From positions 1-10,648 of the forward strand of contig JBDRLP010000030.1 of NCBI GenBank assembly GCA_043812975.1: a stretch of DNA of 10,648 bases. The letters are read 5' to 3'. Every line of letters starts with the position of its first letter. The first letter of the stretch is position 1. The notes beneath the pieces were generated by a model. It made no database searches. It saw nothing but the letters and a program-made list of their open reading frames with translations, and was not told where the DNA came from. Positions 145 through 10,403 of this stretch are shown piece by piece. Made by a program: the position numbers and the translations under genes. The stretch comes from Candidatus Iainarchaeum sp. Lineage in GTDB: Archaea; Iainarchaeota; Iainarchaeia; Iainarchaeales; Iainarchaeaceae.

Positions 145-190
145 GGCCCTTCAAAAGAAGGGCTCGATTTCTTTTATTCTATTTATTTTC
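145..190 (+). terminator. GC-rich hairpin followed by a T-rich tract
   Basis: GCCCTTC(146-152)-AAAA-GAAGGGC(157-163) forms a 7-bp stem, extendable by G145:U164, followed by TTTCTTTTATTCTATTTATTTT. Confidence 0.5.
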
Positions 191-234
191 TAGCTTTGAT
201 TGCAATTCAGTCGCAATAATGCTTATGGTTAGAA

Positions 235-242
235 TTAAATAA
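235..242 (+). promoter_or_regulatory. Putative TATA box for a leaderless transcript of the 264 ORF
   Basis: TTAAATAA is centred ~26 nt upstream of ATG 264, and no Shine-Dalgarno precedes that ATG. Confidence 0.35.
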
Positions 243-263
243 TCGGATATAGTTACTTTTATT

Positions 264-968
264 ATGGGATTAATTAGAAAGAAAAAACACAAGCCGAATA
301 AAGCCGCTAGCAGAAGAATCCGAAGATTAGTTTCTGGTACACGCAGACTTGCGTTAAAACCAATAACTCTTCCGGTTAGGGCTATGGTAGGTACTTTGAG
401 GGTTGTTCCAGGTGCTGTTAGAGGAACATATAAGTATGTTTTGAGACCGCCTGGCAGAGCTATTTCTTTTACTGGTAGAAAAATTCTTTGGCCGTCTGCA
501 CAATTTGCAGGCAAAGAAATTATATGGCCGGCTTCAAGCGAAGTTGTTAGAACTGTTTGGGGTGCTGGAAAAGGGGTTGTAGGTGCAGGTTTTGAAGCCG
601 GAAAAGGTGTTGTTTCAACAATGTGGAAAACTCCTGCTGGAAGATGGGCTCTTGGGGGAGCGGCATTGTTTTTTGTTCCAGGAGTAGGGCAGTTGCTTTT
701 CTCAAAACTTGGGGCTGGTTTAGCAGTTGGATTATTAACAAAGAAGGGCTGGGAAGTAGCCAATGTAAAATGGCAGATGAAAGATGCTGAAGCAACAGGC
801 AGGCTTGGAAGATTATATTATGGTGTTAAAACAATTGGCGGTGACGAACTCACAGGAGAAGGAGGACAAAGATTCTTAGTTACTCTTGATCCAAAAACAG
901 GAGAGGTAAGTCATTCTCCATTTGATTCACCAGAAGCAGAATCCGAACCACTTCCATTGCCAACTTGA
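264..968 (+). CDS. Hypothetical basic, amphipathic membrane-associated protein (234 aa)
   Basis: ATG-started ORF with the same G/T-skewed codon style as its neighbours. It has 22 K/R and no D/E in the first 84 aa, quasi-repeats (ILWP/IIWP, GAGKGVV/EAGKGVV), a Gly-rich hydrophobic hairpin (WALGGAALFFVPGVGQLLFSKLGAGLAVGLL) and an acidic Pro-rich tail. Confidence 0.8.
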   Translation: MGLIRKKKHKPNKAASRRIRRLVSGTRRLALKPITLPVRAMVGTLRVVPGAVRGTYKYVLRPPGRAISFTGRKILWPSAQFAGKEIIWPASSEVVRTVWGAGKGVVGAGFEAGKGVVSTMWKTPAGRWALGGAALFFVPGVGQLLFSKLGAGLAVGLLTKKGWEVANVKWQMKDAEATGRLGRLYYGVKTIGGDELTGEGGQRFLVTLDPKTGEVSHSPFDSPEAESEPLPLPT

Positions 969-994: not shown

Positions 995-1075
995 CCTTAT
1001 TATATAACTTTTTTATTATATATAGTTAATATATCAGTTATTTGATAATTTGATATAATCAATATATATTGGTGC
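995..1075 (+). promoter_or_regulatory. Operon promoter region with tandem TATA-like boxes and a GGTG ribosome-binding site
   Basis: TTATTATATA at 997-1006 and 1013-1022, ATTTGATA tandem at 1040-1055, palindrome CAATATATATTG at 1060-1071, and GGTG at 1071-1074, 6 nt before ATG 1081. Confidence 0.5.
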
Positions 1076-1080
1076 TTTTC

Positions 1081-1683
1081 ATGTCACAGACCAGAACAAT
1101 TGGTTTAGTAGTAATTGCAGTCATAATCCTTGCCGGAGCGTATTTTTTCTTAGGTTTTGATGGGTCTGATTTTGAAGAAGCAAGAGAAGAAATAAATGAA
1201 GTATGGGTTGCGGAAGGTATTAATATTGAAAAAATAGATTTTGATACTTCTGAACAACTTTCTCTAACTAATAATGAACTTGCAGAAATGAAAATCAAGA
1301 TTAATAGGATTAAAAGTAAATACTCTTCTTCTGATGATTCTGAAGCAATAAGTGCTTTTGTAGAAGTGCACTTGAGTTCAGTGCAGATTATTGAAAATAT
1401 TAATTTATTTGTAGAAGCAAGTTATGATTTTGATATTGATACAACAGATGGTGAATCGTTATGTGTAGTTTCCCTTTCTTCCTTTGATGATTTGACTTCT
1501 CTTGGAGATTCAACTGTTTCCAATATAAAAAACCATAATGAAAAAATAACTAGCTTTTCAAGAAATTATTCTAAGGATTATTCAATCAGTGTTTCAAATC
1601 TTTTTATTGAACAAGAATCTTTTGAAGTATCTTTAAAAAATTTAAAAAGCACTAGGAAAAACATTGAGGAGTTGTGTGAATGA
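1081..1683 (+). CDS. A1: N-terminally membrane-anchored acidic helical protein (200 aa), paralog of 4635-5285
   Basis: ATG 1081 with a GGTG SD is preferred over the track's TTG 1069. One TM segment (IGLVVIAVIILAGAYFFL) precedes amphipathic helices and two Cys (SLCVV, terminal EELCE). The stop overlaps the next start (ATGA). Confidence 0.9.
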   Translation: MSQTRTIGLVVIAVIILAGAYFFLGFDGSDFEEAREEINEVWVAEGINIEKIDFDTSEQLSLTNNELAEMKIKINRIKSKYSSSDDSEAISAFVEVHLSSVQIIENINLFVEASYDFDIDTTDGESLCVVSLSSFDDLTSLGDSTVSNIKNHNEKITSFSRNYSKDYSISVSNLFIEQESFEVSLKNLKSTRKNIEELCE

Positions 1684-4622
1684 TAAAAAAAGTTTTTGTG
1701 CTGATTTTTATTCTTTTGATGCTGGCAAATTTTTCTTTTGCTGAAAGGCCTAATCAGGAAGTTTTGAAAAAAATAGATGTTTATAACAGGCCTGGACTTG
1801 CAAAGGACGACTTTATTTTTGTTTTTGAAATTCAGGCTTATATAGATGAGACTGAAACAGGCAATATTTATTTCCTTGATCTTGATGAGGAAAGAGATGA
1901 AGGAATATGGGCAAATGTAAAAGAAATTCTTGAGGATAATTCCGTTGAATCTCCTAGTGATTTGAGAGATCTTTCTTTTGAACAGCATAAAATTAATTTT
2001 GGAAAGTTGGATTTTGAAATTTTAGATAGGGAAAGTGACGGAGATCTTGATGTTCTTTATGAGTTTGACGGAGACAACATTGATTGCTTTAGCCTTTGGG
2101 GTTACGCTGCTTTTAACTTGTATACAACAAAATTCTCTTATTGTGATGATAAGGAAATTCCAGATAATAAAGGTCTGGCAATGGCAAAGCACACCAAAAT
2201 GACAAGTTACACCGGTACTGAAACATTTACTGTTGTTTATGGTACTAAATCAAAAGTAGAAAAGCTTGAAGGAAAAGATTTATCTGAGATTACAACTATT
2301 CTTACCGGGCCTCAACTTGGTTTAAAAAAACTTGAAAAAAAACCAGATCCAGCTCCAGCTCCAGGATTGATAGAAAGGGGTACTGGAGCTGCTTCCGATG
2401 CCGGAGCTTTTGTTGTTGGTGCTGCTGGTGATATAAAAGATTCTGTAGTAAACCGTTATTATGATTGGAAATATGGTCCTACTAATTTTTCATGGGACAA
2501 TCCTGATGAGAAAGATACTATTCTTCTTTCATGGGAACCAATTAGTAATGACGCGGTAAAAGGTTATGTGGTAAAGAGAGAGGATATTTCGAAAGCCCCT
2601 ACAGAAATTAAGTATTATGGTGTTGAGTCAACCAAAAATCTTTACATCTTAAATTCCGGGGAATTTGAGCAGGATGTAATTTATGACTTTACTCTTTTTT
2701 CCTCTATTGTTAATCTTCCAGGAACAGGAGAACTTCCTGAAGCAGCAATTCGCAGTTTAGGTGAAGATCTTAAACAAGGAAAGCCCCAAGTAAGAGTTAA
2801 GGTTACTTCTGAGGAAACAGATGTTGTTCTTGAAAATTTGAAAATTAGGGTGATTGTTGAAGGAAACACCTATATTCCGGATGCTGCTACTAGAGAAATA
2901 TATTTGCCGTATAAAGAGAATATTGCTGTCAGCTTTGAAAATCCAATGGATGGAGTTCCTTATACTATTTCTAAAGAAGATTGCAGGTCAGCTTCAGTTG
3001 GGCCTTCAAGTGCAAAAGTTCTTTTTGTTAACGAATTAACTTCAGATGGCCAGACTTTTTATGCATGTCAGGATAAAGCAAACTTAGTAAACCCTTCTAA
3101 TGCAGGGCTTCAAATAGTTGGTGGAGGTGCAATTCCTGATGGAAAGATTTATTCTGCAACAGATCCTTCTCCTGAGTTTGCATCAGTTGCTTTAAAATTC
3201 AAGCCGCCGATAAGCCACAAACAGCCTTTGTTTGTGAATGAACAACTTCTTAAAGTTGAATTGGAAAACATTAATCCATTGAAAAATATTTTCTTTTCCT
3301 CAGGAAAAACCTGTGAAGTAATCAGACAGGAACTGGATGAAGCATCTATAAAAGCCATTGATGCGAAAAGAAGAGAAACTAGTGCTGATAGAAAAACAAG
3401 GTGGGAGAAGGCGCAGGAAACACTTTCAGCAGGGGTCTCTGTAGTTGGCAATTTCCTTGATTCTGGTTTGGATTGGTTCCATAGAGAAGCGGTTTTATTG
3501 GGTGAAGAAGCTGAAACCGCTACTGTTGGAGAAATACTAGGTTCGAGAGCTGGAAGATCAGGAGCTTTTGTTGTTATAAGTGGAGAGGCTTTTTGGGATA
3601 AGCTGAAGCAAGGGTATGATGCTGCTTTGGATAGTTATGAAGAGGCAAAAGTTGCTGCAAAGGAAAGTTATGCTAACTCGAAAGTTGAGATTCCTGACGA
3701 TGCAATTCCTCTTCCTTTTGATATTTCGATTGAAAAAGTTTATACTCTTGCTCCAAAAGTTTTCAAAGATAGAACAATTTTTTACTTTGGAAAAGTTGAC
3801 GGAACTCCAGTGAAAGCATTAGTTGAGGCTGATACAATTCCTACGATTCATGTTTGTCAGTTTGATGCAGGCTCAATAATTACTATTGAACAGCTTGCAA
3901 TTTTAATAAATCAATCAACATTAGGTTCGGTTGAGACCGATTCTGGCTCTTCTGAACCTGGCTCTCCGAAACTTGATAGCCTCAAAATAAAAAAGGACGG
4001 TGCTTGGGAAGAATATTTAACCAGTCCGCCAAAAGACAGGTGGCTTAACACTTTCGATTACAATCCTAACGATGAAATTTCAGTGCAATTCAAATCAGGG
4101 GATGATTCAAGTGAGATTTATCAGTGGACTCTTGAATTATGGAAACAAAAACCCAGTTCAGTTGAGGAATGTGATGGTGATAAAGAATGTGTTAGGGTTC
4201 AGGTTGAATCTGGAGGCCTAATTGATTCTGCCGGCAAAAAAATAAAGCTCACTAATGCTGATGGTACTCAAATAACAGGGGATGCTCGTAGTACTCTTTT
4301 GGCAACTGCTTCTCCGCACAGCCAGCCAATTCAAAGTGCATTTGTTTTCAAGGGAGACGAACCTGCATGGTATAAGAACAAAAATACTAATCTTAAAGAA
4401 GCAATTGGGGATGCAAAAACTGTTTGGTTAAGGGTTGAGACCTGTCGTTTGCCTGGAGGAGAGGCTGAGTGTAAAAATAATTGGTTGGACTCAACAGCTT
4501 ATGAAATTACTATAGGAGAACCTGAGGAAGAACCAGAACCAGTAATTACAGGATGTAAAACAGTTGCTGAGTGTAAAGCAATATTAGATTTAAAGTTGAT
4601 TAAACAGGTGTTTGGAAAATAA
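1680..4622 (+). CDS. B1: large secreted multidomain surface protein (980 aa) with an FN3-like domain and a C-terminal domain shared with B2
   Basis: Signal peptide MIKKVFVLIFILLMLANFSFA and SD GAGGAG at 1666-1671. FN3-like pattern PTNFSW...TILLSWEP...VKGYVVKR...IYDFTLFS (~2478-2703). aa ~763-980 align by eye with B2 aa ~362-568. The protein ends in GCKTVAECKAILDLKLIKQVFGK. Confidence 0.92.
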   Translation: MIKKVFVLIFILLMLANFSFAERPNQEVLKKIDVYNRPGLAKDDFIFVFEIQAYIDETETGNIYFLDLDEERDEGIWANVKEILEDNSVESPSDLRDLSFEQHKINFGKLDFEILDRESDGDLDVLYEFDGDNIDCFSLWGYAAFNLYTTKFSYCDDKEIPDNKGLAMAKHTKMTSYTGTETFTVVYGTKSKVEKLEGKDLSEITTILTGPQLGLKKLEKKPDPAPAPGLIERGTGAASDAGAFVVGAAGDIKDSVVNRYYDWKYGPTNFSWDNPDEKDTILLSWEPISNDAVKGYVVKREDISKAPTEIKYYGVESTKNLYILNSGEFEQDVIYDFTLFSSIVNLPGTGELPEAAIRSLGEDLKQGKPQVRVKVTSEETDVVLENLKIRVIVEGNTYIPDAATREIYLPYKENIAVSFENPMDGVPYTISKEDCRSASVGPSSAKVLFVNELTSDGQTFYACQDKANLVNPSNAGLQIVGGGAIPDGKIYSATDPSPEFASVALKFKPPISHKQPLFVNEQLLKVELENINPLKNIFFSSGKTCEVIRQELDEASIKAIDAKRRETSADRKTRWEKAQETLSAGVSVVGNFLDSGLDWFHREAVLLGEEAETATVGEILGSRAGRSGAFVVISGEAFWDKLKQGYDAALDSYEEAKVAAKESYANSKVEIPDDAIPLPFDISIEKVYTLAPKVFKDRTIFYFGKVDGTPVKALVEADTIPTIHVCQFDAGSIITIEQLAILINQSTLGSVETDSGSSEPGSPKLDSLKIKKDGAWEEYLTSPPKDRWLNTFDYNPNDEISVQFKSGDDSSEIYQWTLELWKQKPSSVEECDGDKECVRVQVESGGLIDSAGKKIKLTNADGTQITGDARSTLLATASPHSQPIQSAFVFKGDEPAWYKNKNTNLKEAIGDAKTVWLRVETCRLPGGEAECKNNWLDSTAYEITIGEPEEEPEPVITGCKTVAECKAILDLKLIKQVFGK
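3966..4619 (+). repeat. Shared domain copy 1 (protein-level repeat, B1 C-terminus)
   Basis: Colinear motif matches with copy 2: PKLDSLK/PRLNYLK, KDRW/KDRY, DYNPND/DANPNE, QWTLELWK/QYTVELWK, RVQVESG/RIQVASG, VWLRVETC/VWLRIETC, WLDSTAY/WLDSEAY, GCKTVAECKAILDL/GCKTIAECKAILDL. Confidence 0.9.
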
Positions 4623-4634
4623 GGAGGTTTTTGT

Positions 4635-5285
4635 ATGGATAAGAGATTTAAAAATTTGGGAGTAATCATAGCAGTTATTGTTATTATTGCAGTGGTTTAT
4701 GTTTTTGTTCTTCCCGCTTTAGACTCAGGAGTTTCTGGAGGAATGAATTTCAAGGAAGGTGTAACAAAATTAAATCAAATTGTTGAGTCAAAAGGTGTTA
4801 CTATTGAAAGGTTTCAGGAGGGAAAACTTTTTTATTTGAATGATGATGGAACAGTCAAGGATAATTTTTCCGACCCGCAATTTTTGTCTCTAAAAAATTC
4901 TTTTGTTTCCTTCAAGGAAACTTTACCAGCACCAACTTCTTCAATCGATGCTAATGCTTTGAACCAGCTAACGGATCTTTACATTGAACAGATCGAATTA
5001 AACCAAAATAAAAAAAGTATTTTTGATGATTTTCTGGAAATTGATGCTAGCAAGGATTCTCCATGTTCTGTTGTTGTGGATTTGAGAGTTCTTAATGAAA
5101 AAAGAAAATCCTATGAGGCTGATTCGCATATCTTTTTTCTTGATACCTTGATTTTCCTCGGGGACTTTCAGGATTTGGACGGGATAGAACTTTATTACCT
5201 TGATTTTGATTCACAGCAAACATTAGATGAAATTGTCCAGTTGGATGAGGCAATCATTTTGCTTGAGGATTCTTGTCAGGGTTGA
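4635..5285 (+). CDS. A2: N-terminally membrane-anchored acidic helical protein (216 aa), paralog of A1
   Basis: SD GGAGGT at 4623-4628 and TM segment LGVIIAVIVIIAVVYVFVL. Shares the FxE....[IL]N.....G[IV]xIE pattern and two equivalently placed Cys (SPCSVV, terminal EDSCQG) with A1. Confidence 0.9.
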   Translation: MDKRFKNLGVIIAVIVIIAVVYVFVLPALDSGVSGGMNFKEGVTKLNQIVESKGVTIERFQEGKLFYLNDDGTVKDNFSDPQFLSLKNSFVSFKETLPAPTSSIDANALNQLTDLYIEQIELNQNKKSIFDDFLEIDASKDSPCSVVVDLRVLNEKRKSYEADSHIFFLDTLIFLGDFQDLDGIELYYLDFDSQQTLDEIVQLDEAIILLEDSCQG

Positions 5286-5290
5286 TTTGC

Positions 5291-7393
5291 GTGCTGAAAA
5301 AAATATTTATTCTTACTTTACTTTTTGTTTTCATAATTCCAGGTGCTTTTGCTCAGGCTGCAGCACCAGATCCTGCTATATTGAATGCTGCTCTACCAAT
5401 GCTAGATAATTTTCTAAATAATCCAGGAATTCTTAATCCCGCAGCTCCTGATTTTGCTACACAATCTCATGAAATAGGTAAGGCTCTTGGGCAGGTTGTT
5501 GAGGTAGCTGCGGATACTAGTACATCTGTGTCTGAGAGAGGCAGAGCTATGCAAATGCTTTCTCGCTTTAAACAATCAACAAATCCGGCTGTGCAAGGTA
5601 AGTATGGAGAAACTGCCAGGTGGTTTCAAGCCCAATATTCAAATTCTATAAAAGACTTGTCTTCAAGTGCACAGAATCTGGCTAGGCAGGCAGGTAAGCT
5701 TGATGCAAAAACCCTTGCTGCACAGCAGAGAGCTACAGCTATTGCTCCAAACACCCGGCTTTGGGGGACTCAATGGGCTTATAGGATGAGGGAAGCAAAG
5801 GCATTGGGGCAGGCTGCTAATTATAAAGCTCAGGCTGATGCATTAAAAGCAATGTCCGAGGAATCTTCCAAACAGGCTGCAAATGCAAGGTCACAATTAC
5901 AGATTCTTAAAAATTTTGCTCCTGGTAGAGGATTGATGAATTACTTTCGTAGCACAAGGGATTGGACGGTACAAGCATATCAATACAATAAGAATCTTGT
6001 CCAAGGATTCTTTGCCGGTATTCCAGCGTGGTGGGTTGCTTTCAAAGGTTATACTAGTCAGTATGTGTTGACACCTGCAAAAGCAGCGGTTAGTTATACA
6101 GGAGGAGCAATTAGTAGTGGAGCTGCCTATTGGACTACTTATGAGGGGGTAGGACTTGGAGCTGGTTCTGCTTTCGGTGCAGCACAAGTTGCCGGTACAG
6201 CCTTAATAGGACACGTAATAGTTTACAATTCTCTGAAAGCGGTTTTGATTTCTTCGACTGCAGACAAGATACTTTATCCTCCTGATGTTATTGTAGGGAC
6301 CATAATTTACAATCCTGTTTCAAAAAATTACACTTTCAAATACTTGATTGAGCCAAACAGAGAGCTCAATATTGAGCGTTGGGATTATGTGAGAAAATAT
6401 GCTTTTGATTTCAGCGACAAAACAGGTTGGTGGGGCTGGGTTCAGCAGAAGTGGCTTTGGGTTTCTGAATTTTCAAGTTTAAATTTAATTGACATTGGAG
6501 CAGGGGTTGAAACTTGGATGGATGAAACTGAAAGCCTGACTGATTCTGAATTAATTTGGGGTTGCAGGCTCATGGTTTACAAAGTTCAGGAAGGAGCTGA
6601 AGGTCAATTTAAGGAAAGAGATTCGAGTTTTGAACCTGTAATAGTTCCGGTAAAAAATTGTGCTGCCGGCTACAACACTGAGGATGTTGATTTAATGGCT
6701 GCATTGCAAAATCAAACAGGGGAATTTGAAGCAATTATGTTTGTCAACTTTGATCCACGAATAATTTTGTTCTCAGCGGACGTGATTAATGGAAAGGGAG
6801 AATACCAAAATTATGAACGTGAAGTAACATTCCTTCCGATTCCCGGGGCAGGCTCTTCCAGGTCATTTAAAACGAGTTTCAAAGTTAATGCACGTGTATG
6901 GGAGCATGCACTTGATGATTATGCAAGGCAAAGTAACTTGCCGCCTATTGATTTGGCTATAGCAGCACCAACTGATTTTGAGAATGATTACCAAAAAGCA
7001 ATTGATGATTATGAGGGCACGAGAGCGGATGTAATGGCTATTGTTGGAATGCCTTCTTTGCCTCATTACTTTAATGTTAATCGTGGGAATGCTATAATTG
7101 ATTTTCGTAGGTCTCTGAGTGGCGTTGATTATTTTGATACAAAGTTAAATGCTACAAGAAGAGCTACTGCAGGTTCGTTGAAGAGTGGTTTAGTTAGTAT
7201 TGTGAATGTAAATACTGGTGAAGAATATGATATTACTAAAATTAGTTCTAGTATGGGTAACAAGTTTTATCTTATAATGGATGATATTTCTCCGGGAGAA
7301 TACATACTTACCTCTGTCCTTGGGGGGTATAAAGAAGTTAGTTTTAAGTTTACTGTTGAGGAAAAGAATTATGTGAACTGGTTAACTGGGTGA
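5291..7393 (+). CDS. C: secreted protein (~700 aa) with an Ala/Gln-rich helical region, a Gly/Ala-rich hydrophobic segment and a C-terminal Ig-like domain
   Basis: GTG 5291, preceded by GGTTGA, is preferred over TTG 5273 because it gives a clean signal peptide MLKKIFILTLLFVFIIPGAFA|QA. Hydrophobic Gly-rich stretch at ~6005-6250. The C-terminal DISPGEYILTSVLGGYKEVSFKFTVEE resembles the last strands of an Ig-like beta-sandwich. Confidence 0.9.
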   Translation: MLKKIFILTLLFVFIIPGAFAQAAAPDPAILNAALPMLDNFLNNPGILNPAAPDFATQSHEIGKALGQVVEVAADTSTSVSERGRAMQMLSRFKQSTNPAVQGKYGETARWFQAQYSNSIKDLSSSAQNLARQAGKLDAKTLAAQQRATAIAPNTRLWGTQWAYRMREAKALGQAANYKAQADALKAMSEESSKQAANARSQLQILKNFAPGRGLMNYFRSTRDWTVQAYQYNKNLVQGFFAGIPAWWVAFKGYTSQYVLTPAKAAVSYTGGAISSGAAYWTTYEGVGLGAGSAFGAAQVAGTALIGHVIVYNSLKAVLISSTADKILYPPDVIVGTIIYNPVSKNYTFKYLIEPNRELNIERWDYVRKYAFDFSDKTGWWGWVQQKWLWVSEFSSLNLIDIGAGVETWMDETESLTDSELIWGCRLMVYKVQEGAEGQFKERDSSFEPVIVPVKNCAAGYNTEDVDLMAALQNQTGEFEAIMFVNFDPRIILFSADVINGKGEYQNYEREVTFLPIPGAGSSRSFKTSFKVNARVWEHALDDYARQSNLPPIDLAIAAPTDFENDYQKAIDDYEGTRADVMAIVGMPSLPHYFNVNRGNAIIDFRRSLSGVDYFDTKLNATRRATAGSLKSGLVSIVNVNTGEEYDITKISSSMGNKFYLIMDDISPGEYILTSVLGGYKEVSFKFTVEEKNYVNWLTG

Positions 7394-7397
7394 AACA

Positions 7398-10300
7398 ATG
7401 GATAAAAAAAATCTTACACTATTCTTGGTTTTGCTTCTTGCCGTTCCTGCCTATGCTTTCTTGGATATGACTGCAATCACAAGTATTTTGCAGGCTGTTC
7501 AGGCACAGATTACAAGTATTGATTCTGAGGAAGTAAATTCTCTGACCCTTGTTTTTCCTGAAAGTATAAGTGATTCTGATTTACAGGAGATAAATTCTTC
7601 AATTTCTTTTAAGAACAGGGTTCTTGACGAAACTGCAAACAAGGTTGTATTGAATGATGTTTCTCCAAAACCTAATGGCACAATAAACGGCAAGAAAATT
7701 GTTTTCAATCTTAAAATTGGAAGTTACCAAGTTTCTTCTGTAAATTTCAAGCAGCCTTTGGATGTATCTATGACATCTGATCAAACGGTCACGATTAATT
7801 CTGATAATCTTGCTGCAGTAATTGTTGAACCAGGGCTGGAACCGCCTGTTCAGATAGACCCTCCTGAGGTTCCCGTATCTGTTGGAAATATGCCGAGGGA
7901 GATTAAGGTTGAGGATTTTACTTCTCTTTCAGATGGTGTTTTGATTTTTGATCCGAATAATCCGATTGAGTTGGTTAGGGATAAGTATTCTTATCTTCCA
8001 GAAAGCGGTTATGTTGTAACTCAAGAAGGAAAAATAGTAGTAGCCCAGTATGTGTTTTATAAAGAATCAGAAGACAAATATTTTTACACTACCAGTTACC
8101 CGTTTTACCGAGAGCCTTTTCTTTCTAATTTTTTTAGCTGGTCAGACTTAGTTGCTGATGCTCGGAGTGCTACTGAAAAAAATGGACGCTGGAAATATTC
8201 TGTTTCTAATGAACTTTCTGATACTGTTGCTAGTTCGCTTGGTTTGCCAACCAAGGAAGATTATTTTGGCAAGTTTGTTCAATTATTAGATGAGGATTAT
8301 ACCTTTGTTTTTTCTATGAAGAGTGGTACAGATGATACTGTTTACATTGACATTGATTATGTTGCTCTTGTCCCCAGTGATTTAATTGAAGATGATTCAA
8401 GTACAGAGGTTGAGCCTGTTCAGCCTGATGTACCTGAAGAAGATCCTGCTGCGGAAACAGAAGAGTTAAACGTCTGCAAGCCAAGATTAAATTATTTAAA
8501 ATTTGGGCCTAAGGCAACTCCGAGGGATTCTTTAGAAGAAAAGGATCGTTACATTGTTCTTGATGCGAACCCGAACGAGTTTGTTGATTTGGAGTTTAAA
8601 GTTACGAAGTTTGAAGTAACCGGGGTTGCATCTCCTGATATTGAGGAATTTGACTGCCCAATAAAACAATATACTGTAGAGCTCTGGAAGAAGAATCCTG
8701 CTGATGTTGACGATGCGGAAAAAGAAGAAATGAGAATCCAGGTTGCCTCGGGTCAGTCTGGAAGTGCAGGGGAAGAAGATCCTATTAAACAGCCAAAGCA
8801 AAAAGATTTTCCTTTTATTTCAAGTTTTAAAGTAAAATGGCAGAATTCTTATGAAAAAACATTAGGTGAAGCAGTAAAAGACCTTGAATATGTTTGGCTT
8901 AGGATTGAAACCTGTGATGAAAGTGATCCTGCTGCTGATGATGAGTGTGATGGAAAATGGTTGGATTCAGAAGCTTATAAGATTAAAATTGTTGCTCCTA
9001 AGCCAAAGCCTAAACCTGAAGTAGTTGAAGTTAAGGGCTGCAAAACAATAGCAGAGTGCAAAGCAATTCTTGATTTGAGAATGGTTGAACAGGTTTTTGG
9101 GGATATTCCTAGTGGAATTGTTACTGGTACATTAAGTGCTTCATGTAACTTGCCTAGAGAATTGACTCAGGCAGATGTTCAAAATGCTTTTGGTCCTACC
9201 TGTGCGCAATACTTTGGTTTTGTTCAGGACTCTGTTGAACAAACAGGCTTGATAAACAAAGGCTTTGATTCGCTTATGCTTTTCTCGTTGATGCAGGCGG
9301 AAAGTAATTGTAAAATAAATGCCGAAGGGGCATCTGGAAATCCTTATTGTGGTCTTATGCAATTACATTGCACAAATAATTCCAATCTTGAGTGTCCTAA
9401 TGCTTTGAGTCGTTTTGGTAATAATATAGATCGCTTTAATGCCCAGCAAAACATTGCTTGTGGAACTGAACATTTATTGGGGAAATATAGTTATGTTGAG
9501 CCTAAAATATCTGGAAACGCTCTCGAACAAATAATTCCACTCAGCTTTTTATCATATAATCGTGGTCAAGTAGCAGGAGTAAACGCTGCAAGATATTATA
9601 ATAGCGGAGACCCCTTGCATGATGCTATGGTTCAAGGTTGTGTTGATTTACCTAATGAATGGGCGAAAAGACCTGGATTTTGTGGCCAAGGACCTGTGTG
9701 GACACTAGGACAATCCGATACAACTGCTCTTGGTGCTAGATATGCGGAGAAAATAATGTATAATTACATAGCTGCCTGTGAAAAGATTGGTGTAATTTAT
9801 GGTGAGAATTCAAATGAAGTTTCTAGCACAGTTTCTTCTTTGAATTTAGCATGGCCAACCCAAAGCAAAGATGTTATTACTTGCGTTGCAAATTCCAATA
9901 ATCATTCCGGAATTGATATTGGCGGTTCAAAGGTCTTTGATGGAAGTCAACAATCATCAAGAACTGAAGGAGCAATAGGAATGCCAATATTTGCAATTGC
10001 AGATGGAACTGTTGTTGATATTAAAGATGGTTGTCCTCCTAGTGGATTTGGAACCAATTGTGGTCCAAGACCTTCAGCGAGTTATGGAAATACTGCTGTG
10101 ATTAAGTTTGATGGTTTGGAAGGGTATTTTGTTTACGCTCACTTGAAGAATAATATTTCAAAATCAAAAAACCAAAAAGTTATAAGTGGAGAACAGATAG
10201 CTGAAATGGGTACAAGTGGTTATGCAGGAGAACCACATTTGCATATTACTTGGGTAAAAGACGAATCATTTTATTCTAATAATACTTTCAATTACAATTT

Positions 10301-10403
10301 TTCATTAGCTAACACAGAAAATCCGCTTTCTCTTTTTGATGCAAGTCAGTACAATTTGATTTCATCAAGAGGTGGCGTCAGCTCAGGAACTTGTACAACC
10401 TAA
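7398..10403 (+). CDS. B2: secreted modular peptidoglycan hydrolase (1001 aa) with an SLT/GH23 lytic transglycosylase and an M23 zinc metallopeptidase
   Basis: Signal peptide MDKKNLTLFLVLLLAVPAYA, with SD GGTGA overlapping the previous stop. SLT motifs: QAES (Glu635, 9300), GLMQ (9351), NIACGTEHL, SYNRG (9552), RYAEKI (9738). M23 motifs: WP, HSGID (9903), PIFAIADGTV, YGN, YAHL (10134), MGTSG...PHLH (10236), NPL. Confidence 0.93.
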   Translation: MDKKNLTLFLVLLLAVPAYAFLDMTAITSILQAVQAQITSIDSEEVNSLTLVFPESISDSDLQEINSSISFKNRVLDETANKVVLNDVSPKPNGTINGKKIVFNLKIGSYQVSSVNFKQPLDVSMTSDQTVTINSDNLAAVIVEPGLEPPVQIDPPEVPVSVGNMPREIKVEDFTSLSDGVLIFDPNNPIELVRDKYSYLPESGYVVTQEGKIVVAQYVFYKESEDKYFYTTSYPFYREPFLSNFFSWSDLVADARSATEKNGRWKYSVSNELSDTVASSLGLPTKEDYFGKFVQLLDEDYTFVFSMKSGTDDTVYIDIDYVALVPSDLIEDDSSTEVEPVQPDVPEEDPAAETEELNVCKPRLNYLKFGPKATPRDSLEEKDRYIVLDANPNEFVDLEFKVTKFEVTGVASPDIEEFDCPIKQYTVELWKKNPADVDDAEKEEMRIQVASGQSGSAGEEDPIKQPKQKDFPFISSFKVKWQNSYEKTLGEAVKDLEYVWLRIETCDESDPAADDECDGKWLDSEAYKIKIVAPKPKPKPEVVEVKGCKTIAECKAILDLRMVEQVFGDIPSGIVTGTLSASCNLPRELTQADVQNAFGPTCAQYFGFVQDSVEQTGLINKGFDSLMLFSLMQAESNCKINAEGASGNPYCGLMQLHCTNNSNLECPNALSRFGNNIDRFNAQQNIACGTEHLLGKYSYVEPKISGNALEQIIPLSFLSYNRGQVAGVNAARYYNSGDPLHDAMVQGCVDLPNEWAKRPGFCGQGPVWTLGQSDTTALGARYAEKIMYNYIAACEKIGVIYGENSNEVSSTVSSLNLAWPTQSKDVITCVANSNNHSGIDIGGSKVFDGSQQSSRTEGAIGMPIFAIADGTVVDIKDGCPPSGFGTNCGPRPSASYGNTAVIKFDGLEGYFVYAHLKNNISKSKNQKVISGEQIAEMGTSGYAGEPHLHITWVKDESFYSNNTFNYNFSLANTENPLSLFDASQYNLISSRGGVSSGTCTT
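8481..9101 (+). repeat. Shared domain copy 2 (protein-level repeat, B2 middle)
   Basis: Same colinear motifs as 3966-4619, located immediately before the SLT domain. Confidence 0.9.

Follow-up and report, generated by a model that had tools for sequence, protein, structure and literature searches.

The stretch examined here (the window) is an entire contig of 10,648 bases, JBDRLP010000030.1, from a Candidatus Iainarchaeum genome of 1.24 Mb and 35% G+C. That genome encodes ribosomal protein L21e, while L21p was not found in it, which marks its owner as an archaeon. The element of interest is a short, cysteine-containing motif that ends one of its secreted proteins, B1, and lies inside another, B2. 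The motif is an autonomous extracellular module of about 25 residues, shuffled among Sec-secreted proteins of a single DPANN-type archaeal phylum; its autonomy is apparent from its freedom of position, its flanking linkers, its many unrelated partners and the existence of stand-alone forms. As to function, we tentatively favour a docking module that would tether exchangeable, anchor-less secreted proteins to a conserved surface partner, and we give this reading somewhat less than an even chance.

Two copies in one contig

The first copy occupies positions 4551 to 4619 of the plus strand and makes up the last 23 residues of B1 (GCKTVAECKAILDLKLIKQVFGK): Cys959 and Cys965 with five residues between them, a helix from the motif Val to the motif Phe, then Gly-Lys and the stop. 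Bases 4551-4616 translate to GCKTVAECKAILDLKLIKQVFG, a Lys follows and the stop codon is at 4620-4622; B1 does end one residue after the motif, as the original prediction had it. The second copy (9036..9101, plus strand) is internal, at residues 547-568 of B2 (GCKTIAECKAILDLRMVEQVFG); it is the best profile match, with 69.6 bits, and the B2 frame continues past it with DIPSG. A linker precedes each copy on the plus strand. The one before copy 1 (4515..4550, GEPEEEPEPVIT) is rich in Pro and Glu, with EPEEEPEPVIT just before the motif, and the one before copy 2 (8994..9035, APKPKPKPEVVEVK) is, by its sequence, rich in Pro and Lys.

Translation and a codon count confirm the earlier claim that the two copies agree in 17 of 22 residues while many of their codons differ synonymously: 17 of 66 bases differ, with nine synonymous and five non-synonymous codon differences and eight identical codons. 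The longer alignment around the motif (B1 763-979 with B2 362-568) has 85/236 identical positions (36%, expectation value (E) 1e-31), or 32% outside the motif. The binomial chance of at least 17 identities in 22 is 1e-4 at the 36% background and 1.5e-5 at 32%, and the motif is thus conserved well beyond its surroundings. These two copies, in B1 and B2, are the only ones in the source genome.

Distribution across genomes and proteins

Two profiles were used, one built from 12 motif copies and read at E up to 0.1, the other built from 54 copies and read at E up to 0.001. The 12-copy profile finds the motif in 71/196 genomes of the order. With the 54-copy profile it is found in 65/215 genomes of the phylum, and in 30 of the 58 that are at least 90% complete. 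Searched against 1.84 billion representative proteins, the 54-copy profile returns 93 proteins at E up to 0.001, a set that shares many proteins with the 55 carriers collected from 50 loci and is not independent of them. One of the 93, P0090, looks like a chance match and one protein has no match to the regular expression; position counts use 92. Ten of the 93 were checked and, where named, are proteins from archaeal metagenome-assembled genomes labelled by their catalytic domain or as 'hypothetical'.

The profile search and the tabulation of following domains that the original prediction had proposed were thereby carried out, and they show neighbouring content that varies. The motif is not confined to the two paralogs of the window, it does not always keep the same company, and it is much more conserved than the domain that the paralogs share.

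The motif is unknown to the domain libraries searched: 12 motif segments had no match in Pfam at E up to 10, and NCBIfam has no match to the motif. A homology search with the sandwich-plus-motif part of B2 returned one protein, P0001, and one with the motif region alone gave two word candidates, neither of which scored. The ESM Atlas held no usable look-alike of the motif region. A pattern search of genome contigs starting from a single protein gave 600 pattern matches, none of them confirmed.

Position and partners

In 67 of the 92 proteins the motif is C-terminal, and in 25 it is internal or near the N-terminus. Among the 55 locus proteins, where 'terminal' means at most 19 residues after the motif, 35 copies are terminal, 19 are internal and one is cut by a contig end. 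Some copies come immediately after the signal peptide, as in a 248-residue protein with the motif at residue 44 and a 555-residue one with it at residue 55. An enzyme domain, be it SLT, M23, Amidase_3, glucosaminidase, CAP or the Lon-like Lon_C, precedes the motif in 12 proteins, with the motif as the protein end, follows it in 11, and stands on both sides in two. Three stand-alone proteins of 75-113 residues have nothing besides the motif but a signal peptide and a Pro/Thr linker.

The Pfam partners of the 93 proteins are diverse. SLT, the lytic transglycosylase domain, is found in 15, Amidase_3 in three, and M23 and CAP in two each; Glucosaminidase (below the cut-off) occurs in two, and GH3, Lon_C and GDSL (weak) in one each. 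The others are PKD (seven), fn3 (one) and Big_7 (one), and the motif is also found on proteins with PKD domains only. No Pfam family whatever is found in 60/93. In the 55 locus proteins, SLT is found in 12, M23 in three and Amidase_3 in two. A peptidoglycan-hydrolase-type domain is present in 21/93 carriers (16/55 in the locus set), and SLT is detected in 62/215 genomes and, by hand count, in 26/65 of those with the motif. The role of the motif is therefore not tied to wall cutting alone.

Carriers appear to be exported: a signal-peptide-like segment begins 43 of the 47 carriers with a complete N-terminus, and not one of the 55 shows a further membrane-type segment (after residue 60). Pro, Thr and Glu are over-represented in the 15 residues ahead of the motif (55 proteins), and the tails that follow terminal copies are rich in Lys (32/132 residues).

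In both window proteins a beta-sandwich domain precedes the motif on the plus strand, at 3945..4514 in B1 (from the alignment and predicted strands) and, as the same domain, at 8463..8993 in B2 (from the alignment). The motif is not bound to this domain: a jackhmmer search over the 50 loci recovers about 8 to 10 proteins with the sandwich as against 50 with the motif, and one relative has the two in reverse order, motif first. By VIA-align, the B1 sandwich has generic immunoglobulin (Ig)-, fn3- or carbohydrate-binding-module-like matches only (best Z 7.9, root-mean-square deviation (rmsd) 2.9, 102 aligned), and Foldseek finds no match for the B1 C-terminal model in the PDB at E up to 0.001.

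Several individual carriers deserve mention. At L023 (G004:C7, 7102-8990) a 411-residue protein has the motif as its end, and the gene after it (194 residues) encodes an SLT-like domain; in the 943-residue P0001 this domain is fused downstream of the motif, as if a gene had been split, or two genes fused, at the edge of the motif. L022 (G003:C4, 1278-6578) encodes a frame of more than 1766 residues with M23, glycoside hydrolase family 3, sandwich, motif, Amidase_3 and a further C-terminal domain, so that several wall-degrading activities, as judged by domain, are combined on one secreted archaeal protein. A second element, [DE]W[FI][IL]W and then Lys, is present 10-12 residues upstream of the motif in three close relatives (L020 3849-5789, L022 1278-6578 and L023 7755-8990) and is absent from B1 and B2. 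Two small signal-peptide-plus-motif proteins (L076 3859-4161 and L080 1165-1506) have the segment PTIEGP.FDTL.P at the N-terminus and a segment GPVLN..(3)NPF.G in common, separated by low-complexity Pro/Thr/Ser stretches; the two may be two-ended adaptors.

Anatomy of the motif

Over 54 copies the consensus is C-x-[TS]-[IV]-x-[EQ]-C-L-A-x-[ILV]-D-x-K-[FLM]-[VI]-x-x-[VIL]-F. Both of these inner cysteines are invariant, the Asp is present in 53/54 copies and the Ala in 47/54. The T/S-x-x-E/Q start is conserved at 3.07 and 2.25 bits, and we take it to be a helix capping box.

A structure for the last 225 residues of B1 was predicted with AlphaFold2 from a 12-row alignment (mean predicted local distance difference test score (pLDDT) 81). 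The model consists of a beta-sandwich (strands within residues 8 to 190), a linker of lower confidence (blocks of pLDDT 64-75) and a helix. The helix spans model residues 207-223 and corresponds exactly to the 17 motif residues from Val to Phe; a Thr N-cap stands at its start and a Gly just beyond its end. The earlier description of a cysteine loop and a helix behind a Pro-rich linker agrees with this model and with the composition of both linkers.

The two inner cysteines are predicted from the sequence to form a disulfide, and this Cys-x5-Cys bridge would clamp the start of the helix to the preceding segment. Many relatives carry two further cysteines, in the arrangement C-x2-C-x5-C-x2-C; the window copies have the inner two only. 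In the 55 proteins both outer cysteines are present in 26 and neither in 27, with C4 only in two and C1 only in none; in the 92 proteins of the wider set the corresponding numbers are 49, 38, five and none. Because the outer cysteines are lost jointly while the inner two are invariant, nested disulfides fit better than a four-ligand metal site, an argument that is weakened in that the co-variation comes from related, non-independent sequences. The pattern is suggestive of two nested disulfides in the four-cysteine form, with the inner bridge kept in the window copies. A zinc knuckle or treble clef was considered and rejected for the motif as a whole: these need four Cys or His, 38/92 proteins are without the outer pair, the window copies have two cysteines, and the carriers are exported.

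In a helical-wheel projection, one 180-degree arc is taken up by the conserved aliphatic and aromatic positions, and the Cys lie opposite. The invariant Asp belongs to this conserved half and deviates from the direction of the hydrophobic moment by 24 degrees on average. Mean hydrophobicity of the helix is 0.26, the mean hydrophobic moment is 0.34, and net charge varies between -4 and +3, its median being close to 0. A cationic membrane-active peptide was rejected on the variable charge and the Asp within the apolar face.

Docking and the alternatives

A conserved apolar face with an invariant acidic residue at its centre, carried on a clamped and linker-held helix, points to a protein-binding handle. 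Lacking an anchor of their own, the carriers would need a tether. By contrast, the multi-Ig proteins encoded nearby (FixG_C, NPCBM_assoc, CARDB-like) have C-terminal membrane anchors in 27/35, with basic tails. Such proteins occur as pairs in 21/50 loci, 22/55 motif proteins share a locus with them, and their genes are often convergent with the motif gene; examples are L059 628-4911, L064 3-4149 and L083 1-3290. In the docking model, the presumably exposed hydrophobic face, with the Asp at its centre, would plug into a partner protein on the archaeon's own surface, and interchangeable enzymes and adhesins would thereby be kept tethered at the cell surface or at a contact site.

Some features of the data weigh against this proposal. 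In B1 the helix might pack on the sandwich. Wall-targeting domains of bacterial lysins have just such a layout too, with a small module before or after the catalytic domain. The remaining points concern the candidate partner and are taken up with it below.

The layout just mentioned is what would be expected if the helix instead directed enzymes and adhesins to the bacterial envelope, binding to peptidoglycan or its precursors, or to some other polymer of the wall. LysM, SH3b and PG_binding_1 do such targeting in the modular peptidoglycan hydrolases of bacteria and haloarchaea. The motif flanks SLT, M23, Amidase_3 and glucosaminidase on either side through linkers, and no canonical wall-binding Pfam domain is found in any of the 55 or 93 carriers. 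A modular catalytic-plus-binding layout with domain shuffling is described for archaeal hydrolases in the covered portions of PMC12352652. What makes such target binding unlikely in our view is that no recognisable hydrolase is present in 72/93 and 39/55 carriers, that 39/65 motif genomes are without detectable SLT, that one family has SLT in 7/7 genomes and the motif in 0/7 (nor does it have A, the family described below), and that the conserved face is mainly aliphatic. To our knowledge, a single 17-residue helix is also much smaller than any glycan-binding module. Oligomerisation, in which the stapled helices of two to four chains would pack as a miniature foldon or coiled coil and provide multivalency or join proteins such as B1 and B2, has in its favour the wide hydrophobic face, the small Ala and the buried polar Asp, features known from helical-bundle cores, together with the mostly terminal position and the two carriers in one operon in the window. 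Nevertheless, 17 residues is short for a stable coiled coil, and stand-alone signal-peptide-plus-motif proteins would have nothing to assemble. Many genomes have a single carrier at E up to 0.001, including the complete single-contig G038 and G051, so hetero-pairing of two carriers is not general; overall, we rate oligomerisation as quite unlikely, below target binding.

An in-plane membrane anchor, with the amphipathic helix lying in the outer leaflet of the archaeon's own or a host's membrane, would also suit anchor-less secreted proteins; it would be in keeping with their Lys-rich tails and with the Trp-rich DWFIW-type segment upstream of the motif in three close relatives. The modest moment, the range of charge and the Asp inside the hydrophobic face speak against it, and the strict conservation of Cys, Ala and Asp exceeds what lipid binding needs, all of which makes this reading improbable. 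The original prediction had further offered a sorting signal or a pre-toxin junction, where a machine would recognise or cut the motif, or recombination would swap C-terminal effectors. The many C-terminal copies, the varied enzymatic domains that follow the motif in 11 proteins, and the separate and fused SLT-like domains of L023 and P0001 are what such a role would produce. A strictly C-terminal sorting signal, however, does not survive the position counts (25/92 and 19/55 copies internal or N-terminal) or the absence of a hydrophobic anchor: downstream of the motif, all 55 carriers are free of membrane-type segments, and NCBIfam, which holds models of the known C-terminal sorting signals, has no match. 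Nor can a pre-toxin junction be the general role, since 12 proteins have the enzyme before the motif and the motif as their end; the junction-like layout, motif before catalytic domain, is that of a minority of 11 proteins, including the B2 type. For recombination, the base and synonymous codon differences between the window copies leave no conserved DNA. Sorting, processing or pre-toxin roles are accordingly highly improbable; of the four functions offered in the original prediction, docking and oligomerisation fare best, and docking to a surface protein is the reading we retain.

A candidate partner and its gene cassettes

A candidate partner for docking would be A, a membrane-anchored helical-bundle protein family that heads the same gene cassettes. 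Members have about 200 residues, an N-terminal membrane helix and, in the family alignment, two invariant cysteines, one at the extreme C-terminus. A matches no Pfam family. The AlphaFold2 model of the window member A2 (pLDDT 89) has the membrane helix at residues 3-24 and a helical bundle; Foldseek finds no match for it in the PDB at E up to 0.001, and the VIA-align matches of A are to three-helix bundles or spectrin-like structures of a generic kind (best Z 8.8, rmsd 3.3, 114 aligned) within the background range of helical bundles.

A genes are always directly upstream of a gene for a large secreted protein, and often overlap it. For 33 motif genes the neighbourhood could be assessed: A lies directly upstream in 11, as in A1-B1, and one gene further upstream in 12, as in A2, 706-residue protein, B2. 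The proteins in the middle of these cassettes show no relationship among themselves, which leaves A and the motif as the sole conserved parts. Iterative searches with five other middle proteins found orthologues in one or two loci only.

Several counts tell against a dedicated pairing of A and motif. No A is found within 3.2 kb upstream of 10/33 assessable motif genes, and since the loci were chosen around motif matches, these neighbourhood counts are biased upward. A is present in 113/215 genomes and the motif in 65, so A is not motif-specific; by hand count 49 genomes have both, 16 the motif only, 64 A only and 86 neither. One family has A in 26/38 genomes and the motif in 0/38, and its cassettes end in other proteins. 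These genome tallies weaken the case for A as a dedicated receptor of the motif. Among L099-L102, four loci of a family that has A and no motif, the last small cassette protein of L101 and L102 ends ...IP[QT]SC...(16-17 residues)...SC, which, as a sequence pattern, may be another type of C-terminal element.

A bolder proposal is that the helix and A are the two constant parts of an undescribed archaeal surface-display system, a minimal analogue of cohesin and dockerin. We consider this doubtful, though a little less so than target binding. If it were true, DPANN-type archaea would arm their surface with fast-evolving, exchangeable adhesins and enzymes that cut bacterial walls, which would point to bacteria as hosts or prey.

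Other genes of the window

The plus strand carries a single gene string: a 234-residue basic protein, A1, B1, A2, a 706-residue protein and B2. The 234-residue protein (264-968) is basic and Gly-rich, and relatives of it head the locus in two other genomes; a 194-residue antisense frame (179-763, minus strand) that overlaps its gene is probably due to chance. A1 (1069..1683, plus strand; about 200 residues) has the N-terminal membrane helix and a helical ectodomain, and the end of its gene overlaps the start of B1. B1 (1680..4622, plus strand; 980 residues) has a signal-peptide-like N-terminus, carries the motif at its extreme end and matches no Pfam family. Its stop is followed after just 12 bases by the start of A2 (4635..5285, plus strand), the second member of the A family and the head of the cassette A2, 706-residue protein, B2. 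The 706-residue protein (5273..7393, plus strand), placed between A2 and B2, is secreted and lineage-specific, with relatives in only two other loci.

B2 (7398..10403, plus strand; 1001 residues) consists of a signal-peptide-like N-terminus, the sandwich, the motif, SLT and M23. Its SLT domain (residues 622-730, 9261..9587, plus strand; Pfam PF01464, 22.9 bits against a cut-off of 21.3) holds a Glu-Ser pair in ...MQAESNC..., which is presumably the catalytic motif. The M23 peptidase domain (residues 858-955, 9969..10262, plus strand; PF01551, 45.3 bits against 28.7) has HSGID and HLH segments that we take to be the metal ligands. That B2 turns to its enzymes right after the motif, as originally described, is roughly correct: enzymes do follow, and the Pfam SLT match starts 53 residues on (622 versus 569). 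The contig runs out 245 bases past B2.

Iterative searches with the N-terminal parts of B1 and B2 and with the 706-residue protein found orthologues in one or two loci only. The source genome has a second SLT gene on another contig (G000:C26:16667-16963; 277-residue frame, 57.6 bits), without the motif, and SLT proteins of about 250-350 residues resembling it are present in many genomes of the phylum.

Significance

Archaea make no bacterial-type peptidoglycan, according to the covered portions of PMC8204110 and PMC12352652, where secreted SLT, M23 and amidase proteins in tiny archaea are for this reason taken as a sign that these archaea attack bacteria or attach to them. Peptidoglycan hydrolases that archaea secrete and that are lethal to bacteria are reported in PMC12352652, and large secreted DPANN SLT proteins in PMC8204110 and PMC10936187, again as far as the covered portions go. 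The large SLT proteins and the archaeal wall hydrolases are thus already known; the literature searched, which did not extend to supplementary tables, yielded no description of the motif and its arrangement of cysteines, of the variety of its partners or of cassettes headed by A.

The motif is the one conserved element common to otherwise fast-evolving secreted proteins of this lineage, and it therefore offers a concrete, short and synthesisable probe for the docking target. Its profile also recognises members of the surface arsenal that domain libraries miss, as with the 60/93 carriers that have no Pfam family. If the docking role is confirmed, a 25-residue disulfide-stapled docking helix would be a compact natural tag for protein display.

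Comparison with known systems

Dockerins, by which cellulosomal enzymes bind scaffold cohesins, resemble the motif in being small, non-catalytic, linker-borne modules, mostly C-terminal and sometimes internal, on many secreted enzymes of one organism; by this analogy the proposed role would be to tether interchangeable enzymes to a surface complex. Dockerins have about 70 residues, two calcium-binding repeats and no disulfide clamp, whereas the motif is a block of about 22 residues in a module of about 25, with a single helix, and no cohesin-like partner has been identified. With one helix only and no Pfam match at E up to 10, the motif is not a member of the dockerin family (PF00404).

C-terminal sorting signals such as PGF-CTERM with archaeosortase, or LPXTG, are strictly C-terminal and have a signature, a hydrophobic transmembrane helix and a basic tail. 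The motif does not belong to this type: its hydrophobicity is low for that (0.26), an Asp is invariant, and a following membrane segment is found in 0/55 carriers. A closer likeness is to Escherichia coli PBP5 and PBP6, Sec-exported wall enzymes without a transmembrane segment that are anchored by a short C-terminal amphipathic helix. Here too a short helix sits on Sec-exported proteins, some of them wall enzymes, without a transmembrane segment; unlike the PBP helix, the motif combines invariant cysteines with an acidic residue that is invariant within the hydrophobic face, its net charge varies and some of its copies are internal.

Wall-targeting domains (SH3b of lysostaphin, LysM, PG_binding_1 and, in the covered portions of PMC12352652, archaeal Woldo and Danwoldo) are likewise joined to hydrolases by linkers, in either order and with shuffling. 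The motif is several times smaller, and most of its carriers are without a recognisable hydrolase. Membership in LysM, SH3b, PG_binding_1 or SPOR was rejected, as none of these is found at E up to 0.001 in the 55 or 93 carriers, nor with the motif alone. The published DPANN SLT proteins, as far as the covered portions of PMC8204110 and PMC10936187 describe them, are similar in being secreted, about 1000 residues or longer, equipped with an SLT domain, encoded by small-genome archaea and thought to bind or degrade bacterial walls; those portions do not mention the motif, A-led cassettes or other enzyme partners. The pre-toxin (PT) modules of polymorphic toxin systems (PMC3482391, in the portions covered) are also constant short elements beside variable enzymatic domains, whereas our motif is most often the protein end and may follow the enzyme. 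Immunity genes or toxin cassettes were not seen in the window, whose contig ends 245 bases after B2, and no immunity-family search was made in the other loci. By analogy with these systems, the motif would work most like a dockerin or a wall-targeting module while belonging to neither family.

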